Positions 4,520 through 56,672 of a stretch of 64,000 bases of DNA are shown one piece after another. A model generated the notes under the pieces. It had not been told where the DNA came from, made no database searches, and worked only from the letters and a program-made list of their open reading frames with translations. Position numbers and translations under genes: made by a program. This DNA comes from Enterobacteria phage P922, in the sequence record OR999189.1. The stretch is one strand, 5' to 3'. Position 1 is the stretch's first letter. Every line of letters begins with the position of its first letter.

Positions 4520-4560
4520 AAAGTTGTTTACAAGACTGTTCTTCCGTGGTACTATTACCC
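4520..4560 (+). promoter_or_regulatory. T4-type early promoter
   Basis: AAAAAAAGTTGTTTACAAG...GTGGTACTATTACCCTATCAACT. Confidence 0.5.
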
Positions 4561-4583
4561 TATCAACTACGGAGGAACAGAAA

Positions 4584-4697
4584 ATGAAAAAGATTGTTAA
4601 AGCTATATGGAATGTAGTTATAATACTAGTAGTTTTGAGTATATTCCTAATCGTTTTAATGATTGATGTATTAAACGCTTACTTTGGATTTATGTGA
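4584..4697 (+). CDS. small membrane peptide (37 aa)
   Basis: GGAGGAACAGAAAATG start; hydrophobic core. Confidence 0.35.
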   Translation: MKKIVKAIWNVVIILVVLSIFLIVLMIDVLNAYFGFM

Positions 4698-24569: not shown

Positions 24570-24610
24570 AACTGTTTACATCTCTGTTCTTCTATGGTAC
24601 TATACAACTA
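24570..24610 (+). promoter_or_regulatory. T4-type early promoter
   Basis: TTTTTCACAAAACTGTTTACA...ATGGTACTATACAACTATC. Confidence 0.55.
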
Positions 24611-25306: not shown

Positions 25307-25311
25307 TTTAC

Positions 25312-25350
25312 AGTAGGGTAGTAGTGTGATACTATTACCCTATCAACTAA
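25312..25350 (+). promoter_or_regulatory. T4-type early promoter
   Basis: GTAGTTTACAGTAGGGTAGTAGTGTGATACTATTACCCTATC; -10 region flanked by inverted repeat GGGTA/TACCC. Confidence 0.5.
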
Positions 25351-25360
25351 GGAGAATAAA

Positions 25361-25603
25361 ATGAGATTACAACGTCAGAGCATTAAAGATTCAGAAGTTA
25401 GGGGTAAATGGTATTTTAATATCATCGGTAAAGATTCTGAACTCGTTGAAAAAGCTGAACATCTTTTACGTGATATGGGATGGGAAGATGAATGTGATGG
25501 ATGCCCTCTTTATGAGGATGGAGAAAGCGCAGGGTTCTGGATTTATCATTCTGACGTCGATCAGTTTAAAGCTGATTGGAAAATTGTGAAAAAGTCTGTT
25601 TGA
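25361..25603 (+). CDS. hypothetical protein (80 aa)
   Basis: AAGGAGAATAAAATG start. Confidence 0.5.
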   Translation: MRLQRQSIKDSEVRGKWYFNIIGKDSELVEKAEHLLRDMGWEDECDGCPLYEDGESAGFWIYHSDVDQFKADWKIVKKSV

Positions 25604-32605: not shown

Positions 32606-34191
<1,586 letters not shown>

Positions 34192-34193
<2 letters not shown>

Positions 34194-34250
34194 CTGTTTA
34201 CAAGTCCCTCGTGTTGTGTTATAGTAGACTTACTGACATAACATGAGGGC
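34192..34250 (+). promoter_or_regulatory. T4-type early promoter plus structured leader (duplicate of cassette at 50004)
   Basis: GTTTACAAGTCCCTCGTGTTGTGTTATA...ACATAACATGAGGG; 28 nt identical to 50005 region. Confidence 0.55.
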
Positions 34251-34253
34251 TTT

Positions 34254-34760
34254 ATGATGGATTTACAGCTTATTACTACTGAAATGGTCGTTGAAGCATA
34301 TGGTGATACTACAGATGGGATTTCTGTATTTAAAGGAAATCGTCGAGTTGGATATATCACCGATCTTAAGAAAGATTTAGCTAAGCAAGTCAAGCGGAAA
34401 ACGACCATTAAAGAATATCGAAATCGTCGTCTTGAGCAAGCCCGTGATATGCTTCCTGATGCGGTTGAGGAGATGAAAGTCTTTTTAGAAAATCAGCTTG
34501 CGAAATATGATTGCGAAGTATTCATTAATCAGACTCAACCTAATGTTCACATTAATAGCTGTAAATGCTACATCATCGTTAATCCTTTGACGGGAAAACA
34601 TCGTCTTGGAATTAGCAATCCAAATCGTAGTGCATCAGATATGGCAGAAGATGTTGAGGCATGCTTTAAAATTTCTAAATCTCCAGCTGAACATCATATT
34701 TTAATTAACGGTCTTTCTCAAGACGATATTGTAGAGGTTATTAAAACTTTATGCATGTAA
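34254..34760 (+). CDS. alc: Alc (blocks host transcription elongation on dC-DNA)
   Basis: 168 aa; size and position between rnlA and pseT cluster as T4 alc. Confidence 0.65.
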   Translation: MMDLQLITTEMVVEAYGDTTDGISVFKGNRRVGYITDLKKDLAKQVKRKTTIKEYRNRRLEQARDMLPDAVEEMKVFLENQLAKYDCEVFINQTQPNVHINSCKCYIIVNPLTGKHRLGISNPNRSASDMAEDVEACFKISKSPAEHHILINGLSQDDIVEVIKTLCM

Positions 34761-37514: not shown

Positions 37515-37550
37515 CAGTTTACTTTAAGGTAGAGTTGTGATATTATAGCT
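37515..37550 (+). promoter_or_regulatory. T4-type early promoter with -10 flanked by inverted repeat
   Basis: GTTTACTTTAAGGTAGAGTTGTGATATTATAGCTCTACC. Confidence 0.5.
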
Positions 37551-37576
37551 CTACCAAAACAAATGAGGAAATTGAA

Positions 37577-38104
37577 ATGAGCGAATGGTTTGAAGAAGAT
37601 AAGGTTTATCGCTTTAAAGCTGGATATAAAGATATTTTTAATGAAACTTGTGGGGCTAATAAACGAATTGCCCAGTTTATTGGGGAAAATTCATTTAAAG
37701 TAAAAATAGATCCTGCGAAAAATGTTATTAGTATTAAACGCGAAATTGACGATTGCTGGTATAAAGCTGTTGATGTAATGGGCGAATCTTATAAAGATAG
37801 CCCGCTATTTTCAATTACTTATATGTCAGAATATTATTTTTTCGAAGAAGTTCAAAAAGATGACTCTATCAGTAAATTTGAAATTAAAACTGATAAAGAA
37901 ATTAAGTGGAAAGTAGTAGGTATTACTGGTTGTATGTTTTATATCTATGCTCAAACTGATACGAAGGAAGAAGCTAAAAAGAAAGCTCTAGAATATCTTG
38001 AAGAGTATGAAGAAGGCCCGGTAATGATTACCCAAGATGCCGAATTAGTTTCTGTCAAATTAGTTAAAAACGTTGAAAGTAAGGAGCTAGGATCAACATG
38101 CTAA
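37577..38104 (+). CDS. hypothetical protein (175 aa)
   Basis: GAGGAAATTGAAATG start. Confidence 0.5.
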   Translation: MSEWFEEDKVYRFKAGYKDIFNETCGANKRIAQFIGENSFKVKIDPAKNVISIKREIDDCWYKAVDVMGESYKDSPLFSITYMSEYYFFEEVQKDDSISKFEIKTDKEIKWKVVGITGCMFYIYAQTDTKEEAKKKALEYLEEYEEGPVMITQDAELVSVKLVKNVESKELGSTC

Positions 38105-41044: not shown

Positions 41045-41085
41045 AGTTGTTTACAGTATGGTTCCTTTGTGATAGTATTATCTTA
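41045..41085 (+). promoter_or_regulatory. T4-type early promoter
   Basis: GTTGTTTACAGTATGGTTCCTTTGTGATAGTATTATCTTACA. Confidence 0.5.
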
Positions 41086-41105
41086 CACAAACAAAGGAGA
41101 ATAAA

Positions 41106-41429
41106 ATGAAAACGATTAATCTGAACGCTACAGTTAAAACTAAATGCTTCAATGGTAAATATGATGAAACTATGTGGTTCTTAATGGCAGTTGAAGGTGA
41201 TATTATTGAAGTAGAAACAACAGAAGGTATGGGAACAGATTTCACCTTTACAATTCAAGTTCATAATTTCTTTACTGGTTGGATTTATGAATTGAATACA
41301 GTAATCGTTGGAAAAATTGAACAAAATGAATTAGGTGAATGGTATTATGTTACAGCGCGCCAACGTGCCGAACGCTTAATTGAGAAGATGAAAAAGTTGG
41401 TAAACTTGACATGCAGCACTGGAAAGTAG
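41106..41429 (+). CDS. hypothetical protein (107 aa)
   Basis: AAGGAGAATAAAATG start. Confidence 0.45.
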   Translation: MKTINLNATVKTKCFNGKYDETMWFLMAVEGDIIEVETTEGMGTDFTFTIQVHNFFTGWIYELNTVIVGKIEQNELGEWYYVTARQRAERLIEKMKKLVNLTCSTGK

Positions 41430-41437
41430 TAAAATAA

Positions 41438-41478
41438 TTGTTTACTTTGGTACAGGATATGATATTATATACCTGTAC
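41438..41478 (+). promoter_or_regulatory. T4-type early promoter; -10 enclosed by perfect 8 bp inverted repeat GGTACAGG/CCTGTACC
   Basis: TTGTTTACTTTGGTACAGGATATGATATTATATACCTGTACC. Confidence 0.5.
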
Positions 41479-41504
41479 CGCAATTAAACATCTCGGAGAA
41501 TAAA

Positions 41505-41870
41505 ATGAACTACATCAACTTTGAACGTAAATATGTTTCTAACGGTATTGCAGGTTCTATTGATACTATCTGCCTTTGGAAACATCAAAATGGATCAGTA
41601 TGCGAAATTGAACAGTATATGACTCCTAATTACGTTTATATGCGATTTGAAAATGGCATCACGGTTTCAATCACGAAAGAAGGTTCTTCTTTTAAAATCG
41701 CATTAGATGATGATTTTCGTCAACGTGATTTAGGTACCCATCCTTGCTGGAACGGCGTTAATCGTAAGCTTCTGGTTAAAACTTGGATTCGTCATATTCT
41801 GAGTAACAGAGCTAAACCTGAGCATCTTGAAGCAATCTTTGATGTAGTTCTTAACGAATTTGATATTTAA
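41505..41870 (+). CDS. hypothetical protein (121 aa)
   Basis: GGAGAATAAAATG start. Confidence 0.45.
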   Translation: MNYINFERKYVSNGIAGSIDTICLWKHQNGSVCEIEQYMTPNYVYMRFENGITVSITKEGSSFKIALDDDFRQRDLGTHPCWNGVNRKLLVKTWIRHILSNRAKPEHLEAIFDVVLNEFDI

Positions 41871-45611: not shown

Positions 45612-45796
45612 AAGCTTACTTAGAAACAATTGTCGTTGCTCAAAAAGAAGGTGGAGATGTTTCTACTTCTGTATCACAAATCGTTCTTGAATTTGTAGAT
45701 GCATATGCTTATAATAAATTTACAGAAACATTTGATGCCTATGAAAAAGGTCCGAAGTTTGAAATATACCGTACTCTCTTACCACTAGATTATTAA
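45608..45796 (+). CDS. hypothetical protein (62 aa)
   Basis: ATGA-coupled to ligase; followed by hairpin. Confidence 0.4.
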   Translation: MKAYLETIVVAQKEGGDVSTSVSQIVLEFVDAYAYNKFTETFDAYEKGPKFEIYRTLLPLDY

Positions 45797-45812
45797 AGGC
45801 CTTCGGGCCTTT
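45796..45812 (+). terminator. stem-loop AAAGGCC-TTCG-GGCCTTT (weak terminator or RNA stability element)
   Basis: perfect 7 bp stem with UUCG loop; A/T-rich after. Confidence 0.45.
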
Positions 45813-45848
45813 AATTTTATAAATAGAATAAACACTAGAGAGGATATG

Positions 45849-47945: not shown

Positions 47946-50003
47946 ATGGAACTTATTACAGAATTATTTGACGGCGCTTCGGCGCCGGTTGTTAACTTAA
48001 ACCCGAAGCATAAAATACCTCAAATTTTTGCTATTCAAGCAGGTGAAGAAAGCGTGCTTCCTGGATTTAGATTTTGTACATACACCTCTGGCGGTGATAC
48101 AAATAAAAACGTTAAGCCAGGCGATAAAATGATGCATATCGTAATGATAGGTGTCAATGAAAAGCTATCATTAGTTAAACTTAAAAACTTAGGTGGAAAT
48201 CCAATTGGTGTCATTAATGCGGTTTTTGATACTGCTCTTCAAACAATGAAACAGTATAAAATTGATGCATGCTTATTCCGCGTACTAAAGAGCAAAACAA
48301 ATGGAGCTGCTCGTCAAATGCAAGTTATTGCCGACCGTTTAGTACGTACTAAAGGAGCAGGTCGATATGTTCTTTTAAAGGAAATCTGGGACTATGATAA
48401 GAAATATGCATATATTATGGTTTACCGCAAAAATGCCAATTTAGAAGACATTCCAGGTGTACCTCCTATTTCAACTGAGTTATTCACAAAGGTTGAATCA
48501 AAGGTTGGTGATGTTTATGTAGATGTTAAAACAGGTAATGCTGTTCCTAAAGCTGTTGCTGTTGCTGCTTCTATTGCTTTAGAAAATGATAAGCGCACAG
48601 ATCAAGCTGTAATTCAGAAAACTAAAATTAGTCGTCGATTAGCAGCACAAGCTCAATACTCTACTGTCGATGCTTCACTTCAGGGTGATAGCTTCGCCGC
48701 TAAGAAATATCAAGAGTTTGAATCTAAAGTTCCGGTATATAAAGCAGAAGGACCAATGAACTCCGGCGTTATTCAGGTTGGTTCAAACTTCAGCAAAGGA
48801 GCTATCGGTGGTATGAGGAGTGCTTCTCGTTTTAAATCTAGTGATTATGAACTAGAAAGCTTCCGAAATCATATTGCATTGGCCCATGCGCGTTTACGTG
48901 ATCCATCTATTAAATTACAGAGCGATATAACATATCAAGGTTCTCAAGAATATTTAAAGAATAAAGAATTTTTTGATTATAAAACTGATAAAATTTTAAG
49001 CGATCTTGCTGACATTAATATTTCTAATAGCTTTGATGTTATTAAGAAAATTGTCAATGATTTAGTTAAAGGTTCTAAAGCCACGCCAGACGAAAAGGTA
49101 GCTATTGTTCAATTTGTCATGAATGGCATTTATAAATTGATTAATGAGTCTGCTTCTCAAGCGTATGAATATGCAAGTACTGAAGTACCCCCAAAAGGAT
49201 TAACTCAGGCTGAGTCTGATGTAATTGAAGATTATTGCGCGGATTCATATGTTGAAATGAACTCGTTCCTTTTAGGTAAACCGGATTCTACTCGTGAAGA
49301 ATACATGGAACGAGCTATTAAACACATCGAGACAATGGATTCTGCCTTTGCCAAAGGATCAGTTCTTCCTCCAGGAACTACGCTTTATCGTGGACAAGAA
49401 GTTACCTTTAAAACTTTACGTCATAATATTGAAAATAAAATGTTCTATTTTAAGAACTTCGTATCCACATCGCTTAAACCAAATATCTTCGGTGAGTATG
49501 GTAAAAACTATATGGCTCTAGATGATTCCAGTACAGTATTTTCTGGTGAAGGAGAAGGTTCAGTTGACGCAGAAGATTTGATGCATATGGGCAGTCATTC
49601 TTCTTATGCGAATGAAGATGCTGAAACTAGCGTGGGTATGGTAATTAAAGGAGCTGAGCGAATCAAAGTTATCGTTCCGGGTCATTTATCAGGATTTCCA
49701 TCAGAAGCTGAAGTTATTTTACCACGTGGAATTTTGCTGAAGATTAATAAAGTGAGTACGTACATGATGAAAGAAACTGCTTATAACAAGTATTTAATCG
49801 AAGGCACAATCGTTCCTCCTTCTGAACAATTAGAAGAATCGGTATATGATGGCGATCATCTGATGGAAACTGGTGAAGTTCGTCCAATGGCTGGGTTTAA
49901 TCAATTCCTTGTAGAAGAATCAAAAGAAGAGGAAAACGAAGTTTCTCAAATCTTAGCTTCTTTGGTTAACATCAACGGAATGTCTAAAAAGTTCAAGATG
50001 TAG
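47946..50003 (+). CDS. Alt-like ADP-ribosyltransferase paralogue
   Basis: 685 aa; N-terminus MELITELFDGASAPVVNLNPKHKIPQIF parallels Alt; conserved FVSTSL and SEAEVILPRG motifs; middle region divergent. Confidence 0.75.
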   Translation: MELITELFDGASAPVVNLNPKHKIPQIFAIQAGEESVLPGFRFCTYTSGGDTNKNVKPGDKMMHIVMIGVNEKLSLVKLKNLGGNPIGVINAVFDTALQTMKQYKIDACLFRVLKSKTNGAARQMQVIADRLVRTKGAGRYVLLKEIWDYDKKYAYIMVYRKNANLEDIPGVPPISTELFTKVESKVGDVYVDVKTGNAVPKAVAVAASIALENDKRTDQAVIQKTKISRRLAAQAQYSTVDASLQGDSFAAKKYQEFESKVPVYKAEGPMNSGVIQVGSNFSKGAIGGMRSASRFKSSDYELESFRNHIALAHARLRDPSIKLQSDITYQGSQEYLKNKEFFDYKTDKILSDLADINISNSFDVIKKIVNDLVKGSKATPDEKVAIVQFVMNGIYKLINESASQAYEYASTEVPPKGLTQAESDVIEDYCADSYVEMNSFLLGKPDSTREEYMERAIKHIETMDSAFAKGSVLPPGTTLYRGQEVTFKTLRHNIENKMFYFKNFVSTSLKPNIFGEYGKNYMALDDSSTVFSGEGEGSVDAEDLMHMGSHSSYANEDAETSVGMVIKGAERIKVIVPGHLSGFPSEAEVILPRGILLKINKVSTYMMKETAYNKYLIEGTIVPPSEQLEESVYDGDHLMETGEVRPMAGFNQFLVEESKEEENEVSQILASLVNINGMSKKFKM

Positions 50004-50062
50004 TTTACAAGTCCCTCGTGTTGTGTTATAATAATTTTACTTACATAACATGAGGAACACAA
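50004..50062 (+). promoter_or_regulatory. T4-type early promoter plus structured leader (duplicate of cassette at 34192)
   Basis: GTTTACAAGTCCCTCGTGTTGTGTTATAATAATTTTACTTACATAACATGAGG. Confidence 0.55.
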
Positions 50063-50063
50063 A

Positions 50064-50354
50064 ATGAAATCTTCTTTACGCTTTTTAGGTCAAGAGCTTG
50101 TAGTTGAAGGCGTTATTCCTGCTGATAACGCTTTTAATGAAGCAGTTTACGATGAATTTATCAAAATTTTTGGAACAGATAAAAAGTTCGGAATTTTTCC
50201 TTCTGAAAATTTCTCAAAGCCAGAACAGACTGAAAGCATTTTCCAGGGTGTAGTAACAGGTAAATTTGAGTCAGAAGCTCCGGTAAAAATTGAAGTTTAT
50301 ATTGAAGACAGTTTAGTTGCTTCAGTTGCTGCTTTTATTTCATTCCGTAAATAA
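50064..50354 (+). CDS. hypothetical protein (96 aa)
   Basis: GAGGAACACAAAATG start. Confidence 0.45.
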   Translation: MKSSLRFLGQELVVEGVIPADNAFNEAVYDEFIKIFGTDKKFGIFPSENFSKPEQTESIFQGVVTGKFESEAPVKIEVYIEDSLVASVAAFISFRK

Positions 50355-50358
50355 AAAT

Positions 50359-50380
50359 ATGGGGACCGAAAGGTCCCCAT
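50359..50380. terminator. bidirectional terminator between convergent + and - transcription units
   Basis: ATGGGGACC-GAAA-GGTCCCCAT with A-run on one side and T-rich on the other. Confidence 0.6.
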
Positions 50381-56622: not shown

Positions 56623-56639
56623 AGATGCTCCTTTTATTC

Positions 56640-56651
56640 TATTTATAAATA
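56640..56651. promoter_or_regulatory. overlapping divergent late promoters (palindromic TATTTATAAATA) for genes 51 and 26
   Basis: TATAAATA readable on both strands, each followed by AAGGAG and an ATG at suitable spacing. Confidence 0.55.
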
Positions 56652-56672
56652 TGATAAATAAAGGAGCTAAAT

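Follow-up and report, generated by a model that had tools for sequence, protein, structure and literature searches.

The timing of gene expression in phage T4 is usually put down to the class of the promoter, to cleavage by RegB and to hairpins at a small number of late genes, and the extended consensus of its early promoters (UP/-35/TGn/-10) leaves the spacer unspecified. Two kinds of element described in T4-like phages come closest to the loci studied here. One is the hairpin that sequesters a ribosome-binding site (RBS) and contains an internal promoter, which has been reported for T4 genes e, soc, 49, 39, 25 and 26, the I-Tev genes (I-TevI/II/III), segB and Aeh1 mobE (PMC3014915; PMC2988022). 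At gene e, the hairpin represses about 100-fold (PMC3014915). All genes that these reviews list as RBS-sequestration cases are late (PMC3014915; PMC2988022), although an earlier description of the alc and alt.-3 hairpins may exist. The other is the PeSL cassette, the promoter-early stem-loop of T4-like phages, described in RB49/phi1 and PST/T4 (Arbiol 2010; Comeau 2014), in which a stop codon, an early promoter, a stem-loop, a Shine-Dalgarno sequence (SD) and an ATG form a repeated unit that mediates recombination (PMC2839356; PMC4122927). PeSL stems are compact, lie upstream of, overlapping or between the -35 and -10 elements or just before the transcription start site, and were read as terminators or attenuators; translation is not mentioned in either PeSL paper (PMC2839356; PMC4122927).

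In this study, we analysed a stretch of 64,000 nt from Enterobacteria phage P922 (OR999189.1), referred to as the window. The window belongs to Tequatrovirus and is a relative of T4: megablast searches with both regions of interest returned about 500 Tequatrovirus genomes at 95-99.8% identity, and Shigella phage SF2-1 was the closest. A first-pass annotation, made from the letters alone, had proposed that an identical 28-nt block occurs upstream of alc and, at about 50005, upstream of a 96-codon ORF that follows the Alt genes. The results showed that both the identity and the location are correct. The block (GTTTACAAGTCCCTCGTGTTGTGTTATA) is present in exactly two copies, both on the + strand, at 34196-34223 and 50003-50030. 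No third copy was found in the 64-kb window with up to 3 mismatches allowed, and 100 shuffles of the window gave an expectation of 0 copies, even with ≤3 mismatches. A further 13 nt (ACATAACATGAGG) are identical between the alc and alt.-3 copies. Over the whole 54-nt tract the copies differ at 5 positions, all of them inside the 12 nt that separate the -10 from the 3' arm. In T4, the two cassettes are identical at 53 of 54 nt, and their flanks are unrelated.

Each copy occupies a 60-nt intergenic region that holds a stop codon, a promoter, a stem-loop, an SD and an ATG, all on the + strand. At the first locus, rnlA (gene 63; ORF 33033-34193, annotated as RNA ligase in relatives) ends with a TAG at 34191-34193, 2 nt 5' of the promoter, and the repeat lies between this stop and the alc ATG at 34254. 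The -35 TTTACA (34197-34202; GTTTAC, the T4 early type) is invariant in alignments A2 and A3, and the promoter scan placed a TGn extended -10 with its hexamer (TGT TATAGT) at 34217-34225. The 5' arm of the stem, CCCTCGTGTTGTGTT (34206-34220), occupies the promoter spacer in the minimum free energy structure, and the 3' arm, GACATAACATGAGGG (34235-34249), contains the SD GAGG(G) at 34245-34249. Transcription is predicted to start at the A at 34232, the 7th nt after the -10, on the basis of a conserved CTTAC motif and standard sigma-70 spacing. The gene that follows, alc (34254-34760; Pfam ALC, E 8e-93), encodes the inhibitor of host transcription. At the second locus, the stop TAG of a second alt paralog (ORF 47946-50003) lies at 50001-50003, and its last base is both the first base of the repeat and the G of GTTTAC. 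The promoter scan identified the -35 TTTACA at 50004-50009 and the TGn with the -10 hexamer (TGT TATAAT) at 50024-50032. Folding placed the 5' arm CCTCGTGTTGTGT (50014-50026) inside the spacer, the 3' arm (50043-50055; the 13-nt tract ACATAACATGAGG) contains the SD GAGG at 50052-50055, and the predicted start, again from sequence and spacing, is the A at 50039, 7 nt after the -10. The downstream gene (50064-50354; 96 aa, DUF5498) was assigned as the alt.-3 homologue from its likeness to T4 alt.-3. In most cassettes a YTTAC/CTAC motif is conserved 3-8 nt after the -10 (34226-34234 and 50033-50041 in the window, and in relatives); its A falls at the expected +1, and the region of initiation may therefore be conserved among these early promoters.

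We then assessed the promoters and the folding of the two leaders. Both copies scored as sigma-70 promoters with a TG extended -10 (TTTACA-17-TATAGT at alc and TTTACA-17-TATAAT at alt.-3), and both carry the features of T4 early promoters, namely GTTTAC, a 17-nt spacer, TGn, a TATAAT-like -10 and + strand orientation, confirming the proposal that they are early-promoter and leader cassettes. The late promoter TATAAATA is absent from both cassettes, and no promoter features are annotated in the T4 records. In each copy, the spacer pairs with the GAGG SD 40 nt further 3'. At alc, 34206-34220 pairs with 34235-34249 over 15 bp, including 3 G.U pairs, and at alt.-3, 50014-50026 pairs with 50043-50055 over 13 bp, with GAGG in the 3' arm and the -10 in the hairpin loop in both cases. 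The inverted repeat that the first-pass annotation had paired with the RBS is therefore real, and longer than first stated. With the 5' arm present, the leaders folded at -26.5 kcal/mol (z -4.5) for alc and -19.0 kcal/mol (z -3.5) for alt.-3, compared with -9.6±2.6 and -5.8±2.7 kcal/mol, respectively, when the 17-nt spacer was shuffled. Folded from the predicted start, the leaders were essentially unstructured (-3.2 kcal/mol for alc and -2.2 kcal/mol for alt.-3). The SD was thus buried only when the 5' arm was present, as had been anticipated. With the spacer as 5' arm and the -10 placed in the loop, RNA from the local promoter would lack the 5' arm by geometry.

An intrinsic terminator was also considered at each copy and was rejected: no T-run follows the stem, the next bases being CUUUAUGAUG in one copy and AACACAAAAUG in the other, and the terminator scan flagged neither hairpin, whereas the same scan did find terminators at 50359-50380. 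Rfam searches gave no match anywhere in the 64-kb window.

These features place the element between the two described systems. Like the T4 e/soc/49/I-TevI class, it buries the SD in a stable, covarying helix on upstream-started RNA (-26.5/-19.0 kcal/mol), and, as in the gene e class, the promoter lies inside the helix, so that transcripts from its predicted start would lack the 5' arm and translation would, by analogy, depend on the start site. In the cases that the reviews list for the gene e class, a late or middle promoter serves a late gene, whereas at alc and alt.-3 the promoter is a sigma-70 early promoter whose spacer is itself the 5' arm, and the predicted outcome is early-only translation. 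The comparison with gene e made by the first-pass annotation therefore holds for the folding, in which the SD is buried only with the 5' arm, but not for the timing, which is inverted because the internal promoter here is early. Like PeSL cassettes, the element combines an intergenic stop codon, a sigma-70-like promoter, a stem-loop, an SD and a start codon within about 100 bp. It is likewise repeated in the genome and conserved beyond the promoter hexamers (28 nt exactly plus 13 nt, with related cassettes at 4527 and 41050), and it is tied to recombination, here through cassette exchange between alc and alt.-3 and through an alt paralog deletion adjoining it in T4. Unlike the five stem positions described for PeSLs, the alc/alt.-3 stem starts in the spacer and extends as far as the SD, with the -10 and the predicted start enclosed by it, and no T-run comes after it. 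It also differs from the T4 early promoter consensus in that the spacer is identical in both copies and complementary to the SD. The alc/alt.-3 element combines a PeSL cassette with an RBS-sequestering hairpin and departs from each in one defining feature.

To place the two copies among the other early promoters, we scanned the 64-kb window for GTTTAC-N16-18-TAnnnT followed by an SD and an ATG. The scan found 11 early promoters, all on the + strand, and the spacers of the other nine all differ from the GTTTACAAGTCCCTCGTGTTGTGTTATA spacer. Four of the 11 bury the SD far beyond shuffled-spacer controls, namely those at 4527, 34197, 41050 (gene 30.8) and 50004, and a covariance model of the alc helix also matched 4527 and 41050. 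The cassette at 4527-4586 (+ strand; GTTTACA-17-TACTAT) has the same design, with spacer CTGTTCTTCCGT pairing with the SD-containing ACGGAGGAACAG at -22.7 kcal/mol; the gene concerned is a small ORF at 4584. The cassette at 41050-41108 (+ strand), upstream of gene 30.8, also shares the design, with spacer TTCCTTTGT pairing with ACAAAGGAG at -12.1 kcal/mol. Three further promoters (25307-25361, 37518-37577 and 41441-41505) carry stems of 12-15 bp at -16 to -17 kcal/mol, again with the spacer as 5' arm but with a 3' arm that stops just beyond the -10, so that the SD stays free; the alc stems of Tegunavirus and Acinetobacter Lazarusvirus share this geometry. Because they stop short of the SD, these three stems point to a more general role of such structures. 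One of the remaining promoters has a small spacer hairpin and two have no significant structure. The promoter at 24575 (frd.3) was dropped as an SD-paired candidate, with -13.6 kcal/mol against -14.5 kcal/mol for shuffled spacers. Promoter-embedded stems are common in the window, and SD pairing is one frequent form of them.

A separate observation concerns the T4 homologue of the promoter at 37518. According to the T4 record AF158101, 14 bp at 133300-133313 (locus L078, 10601-10614) are inverted and complementary relative to the sequence published before, a change that "corrects early promoter Pe133295". These 14 bp appear to form the loop of a promoter-embedded hairpin; either the loop really inverted between its flanking inverted repeats, or the older sequence contained an error.

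To assess conservation, we collected rnlA-alc junctions from phages of 13 other genera in GenBank together with 40 IMG/VR contigs, which gave 37 distinct sequences. A helix reaching from just after the -35 to the SD was found in 29 of these 37 distinct Straboviridae alc upstream sequences, in Tequatrovirus, Gelderlandvirus, Karamvirus, Jiaodavirus, Dhakavirus, Kanagawavirus, Winklervirus, Kagamiyamavirus, Marfavirus and two further lineages. Its arms fall into eight sequence classes, e.g., CCATTTGG/CCAAATGG, CATCAG/CTGATG and CTCTCGTTTTTG/CAAAAACGAGAG. Covariation was counted in a gap-free MAFFT alignment (A3) of 14 distinct sequences that had been fitted to no structure; the alignment from the covariance-model search (A4) mixed reverse-strand and unrelated hits and was not used for counts. 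In A3, 95.6% of cells paired, compared with 35-53% when the 3' partner was slid by 1-3 columns. Eight of the 13 pairs varied on both sides (29 cells vs 8.8 in shuffles), and the observed covariation score was reached in none of 500 shuffles. RNAalifold independently predicted the same helix. The SD core itself covaries (columns 9-51 and 10-50), with lineages using GGAG carrying CUCC after the -35 and lineages using GAGG carrying CCUC. Across the eight arm classes, own arms paired at -20.4 kcal/mol, compared with -11.1±3.1 kcal/mol when the arms were combined across lineages. Of 8 arm substitutions seen within Tequatrovirus, 7 leave pairing intact or strengthen it, a test that is small at 8 substitutions, as is the metagenome scan at 5 loci with few from IMG/VR. 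The first-pass annotation had named loss of pairing in relatives as the outcome that would speak against it, and the results showed the opposite, with the alc helix kept by compensatory changes. The repeat and its hairpin are real, non-random and strongly conserved, and the alc hairpin is conserved across Tevenvirinae with strong compensatory covariation.

The remaining lineages have other arrangements at alc. In Mosigvirus the SD is free and the spacer contains no more than a small hairpin, and Tegunavirus, one further lineage and Acinetobacter Lazarusvirus have long stems that stop before the SD. Gaprivervirus has a different SD-pairing stem together with a G4/C4 terminator, and in Aeromonas phages the alc upstream region differs altogether. 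We also observed in Gaprivervirus VR26 (locus L020, 289-603; also L048, L049 and L075) an extra alc-like ORF of 78 codons between rnlA and alc, which represents a partial alc duplication. This ORF is preceded by a GGGG..CCCC stem with a T-run overlapping the -35, as well as by a different SD-pairing stem (GGTTCCATCA...TGATGAGGACC).

The second copy has a different history. We examined the alt.-3 promoter in seven other phages from seven genera, where the stop and promoter again read TAG-TTTACA. Pairing between spacer and SD was found in none of these seven non-Tequatrovirus phages, the SD being free in the majority, and most of them have only a 4-6 bp hairpin inside the spacer, e.g., CCACAAGGATGTGG. 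Relative to these seven phages, the SD-pairing cassette at alt.-3 is, as judged from the sequences, specific to Tequatrovirus. Because the other genera have a different promoter at alt.-3, the alt.-3 cassette is best read as a transplanted alc cassette, and it ends in the shared motifs GTTTACA and ATGAGGA. The duplication proposed by the first-pass annotation thus stands, but the two copies are not of equal age, since the hairpin is ancestral at alc and moved to alt.-3 only in Tequatrovirus. The small spacer hairpins have stems of 4-6 bp and loops such as AAGGA, ACGGA and TGGA (loci L031-L037, at about 440-500; Mosigvirus alc, L022 and L060), and their stems differ by genus (GCAC/GTGC, CACA/TGTG, CCACA/TGTGG and ATCC/GGAT), so that they may form a second, likewise conserved class of structure embedded in promoters.

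We next compared the alc and alt.-3 cassettes with each other by genus. Identity was 81-89% in Tequatrovirus and 79% in Mosigvirus, which has the small-hairpin type at both loci. For alc of Dhakavirus VR5 and alt.-3 of Bp7 it was 82%, with the 3' half identical and the 5' half different, and in five other same-phage pairs it was 55-64%. These identities indicate that the two loci swapped promoter cassettes several times and in different directions. Of the recombination suggested for the exact repeats, what is seen is cassette exchange between the two loci; the direct repeats flank essential genes (30 and 31), so no loss of the intervening DNA is to be expected. Beside the second copy, the window has an intact second alt paralog of 685 aa (47946-50003), while T4 alt.-2/alt.-1 (locus L001, 13066-13451) retain an N-terminal part and the same last codons (..KKFKM*) before the alt.-3 cassette. 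The retained parts make T4 alt.-1/-2 look like an internal deletion of the second alt paralog, and this deletion ends adjoining the alt.-3 cassette. Both arrangements occur among close relatives (T4-like in L015 and L016, window-like in L013, L014 and L017).

On this evidence, the element probably gates translation by transcript origin, and early-only, promoter-autonomous expression of Alc and Alt.-3 is its most likely function. Under this proposal, the 17-nt promoter spacer would double as an anti-SD sequence. A polymerase arriving from upstream would copy the spacer, and its RNA would form the 13-15 bp hairpin, burying the SD and leaving the gene untranslated. For alc, such RNA might come from middle or early promoters before nrdB, denA and rnlA, and for alt.-3 from the late promoter of alt. 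RNA from the gene's own promoter would begin in the hairpin loop, lack the 5' arm, keep its SD free and be translated. Since the internal promoter is early, synthesis would be confined to the first minutes of infection, and the gate would insulate alc and alt.-3 from read-through of neighbours needed later (gp63/RnlA and the head-packaged Alt). The alc cassette would have reached alt.-3 through recombination or gene conversion at the GTTTACA and ATGAGGA ends that both loci share. Of these steps, we infer the start site, the presence and amount of read-through RNA, and the translation block.

The surroundings of the two loci and the published T4 timing data bear on this proposal. Just upstream of alt, at 45795-45825 (+ strand), an intrinsic terminator (AAAGGCC-TTCG-GGCCTTT with a T-run) is followed by a late promoter (TATAAATA), and RNA reaching the second copy is therefore likely to be late. 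In time-resolved T4 data, alc, alt.-3 and 30.8 have early RNA and early protein, rnlA has early RNA but late protein, alt.-1/-2 RNA is middle, and the Alt protein accumulates late (PMC9697503 supplement). Middle promoters have been published upstream of nrdB and nrdA in T4 (PMC2988021), and these could feed read-through into rnlA and alc. A candidate middle promoter was also observed just 5' of rnlA at 33018-33043, where a MotA-box-like TGCTT and a TACTAT 15 nt further on are spaced as in middle promoters; the published T4 table of such promoters does not list it (PMC2988021). Some considerations weigh against the gating proposal. There is no obvious reason why late Alc synthesis should be harmful, and the gate is dispensable, because Mosigvirus, Tegunavirus, Acinetobacter and Aeromonas phages lack SD pairing at alc, as do the seven genera at alt.-3.

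Other functions of the stem have to be weighed against gating. The main alternative is a generic PeSL stem-loop, which on upstream transcripts could attenuate or terminate transcription, stabilise 3' ends or block processing, with SD pairing being secondary. Published PeSL stems between or overlapping the -35 and -10 cut lacZ expression like a strong terminator (PMC2839356; PMC4122927), and the stems at 25307, 37518 and 41441 in the window, those at alc in Tegunavirus and Lazarusvirus, and the small spacer hairpins that recur at the alt.-3 promoters of other genera would all suit such a role without reaching the SD. We nevertheless consider this explanation unlikely: no T-run follows the stem in any genus, the sequence 3' of it being A-rich; neither hairpin is terminator-like by a scan that flagged true terminators nearby; and the SD bases are always paired and covary with the spacer in both the alignment and the RNAalifold prediction, which a pure terminator or stabiliser would not need. 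In a version that links it with gating, the untranslated read-through RNA would become a target of Rho, making occlusion and attenuation one event.

The element might instead act at the DNA level, as a cruciform or single-strand DNA hairpin serving, e.g., as a hotspot of recombination or gene conversion by which promoter cassettes move, or as a modulator of promoter activity, with the RNA fold as a by-product. Consistent with this, sense and antisense folds are equally stable across genera (means of -19.7 and -19.1 kcal/mol, respectively), for which reason covariation alone does not prove RNA-level over DNA-level structure, and strand asymmetry was set aside as an uninformative test across genera. 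Tequatrovirus, Mosigvirus and Dhakavirus all show exchange of cassettes between alc and alt.-3, mini-circles formed by PeSLs and recombination inside them are on record (PMC2839356), and at a related promoter hairpin the T4 record mentions an inversion of 14 bp in the loop. However, a DNA hairpin has no reason to end exactly on the SD or to track the GGAG/GAGG switches, exchange needs only shared sequence and no palindrome, and the sense strand of Tequatrovirus, owing to its three G.U pairs, folds about 9 kcal/mol more stably than the antisense strand. A purely DNA-level function is accordingly improbable. Translational coupling, in which a ribosome ending at the rnlA or alt stop on read-through RNA would open the lowest pairs of the stem and free the SD, making downstream translation proportional to upstream translation, is the least credible explanation and in our judgement very improbable. 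The stop codon does overlap or abut the -35 in nearly all genera (TAGTTTACA), and in Dhakavirus, Kanagawavirus and Winklervirus only about 10 nt separate the first base of the stop from the start of the stem, within reach of the ribosome. By contrast, the main alc stem begins 16 nt after the first base of the stop in the window and in T4, and 13 nt after it in Karamvirus and Gelderlandvirus. The leading edge of a ribosome reaches roughly 12 nt according to established footprint sizes, and because these stems start beyond it, a terminating ribosome would open at most the outer 1-3 of 13-15 pairs.

Returning to gating by transcript origin, its wider form can be put forward only tentatively. T4-like phages may widely use the spacers of strong early promoters as anti-SD sequences, in the window at alc, alt.-3, 30.8 and the ORF at 4584; translation of these immediate-early genes would then depend on the origin of the transcript, as a time-inverted counterpart of e and soc, on a mobile cassette that carries the gate between loci. 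If true, the conserved anti-SD spacer would add a cis rule, by which a gene is translated solely from its own early promoter. Such a rule would explain strictly early proteins encoded directly 3' of later-expressed genes (gp63 and Alt), and, in long polycistronic early units, it would prevent read-through from affecting the dosage of each gene. As the 54-nt cassette includes the gate, promoter swapping between loci would carry translational control as well. For synthetic biology, the cassette might be of use as a small, transferable module that joins a promoter to an insulator against transcripts from upstream.

Two further observations were made in the window. The first 10 nt of pseT.3, which encodes an Rz-like spanin, are also the last 10 nt of alc (34751-34760). 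If alc is indeed untranslated on read-through RNA, translation of the downstream spanin genes may change too, through coupling. In addition, an inverted repeat, GCTCCTTTATT...AATAAAAGGAGC, lies at 56624-56671 on both strands (T4 locus L001, 6431-6478), between the late genes 26 and 51, which diverge from it. RBS sequestration has been published for gene 26 (PMC3014915; PMC2988022). This repeat holds TATAAATA in both directions, and the two divergent SDs are automatically complementary.
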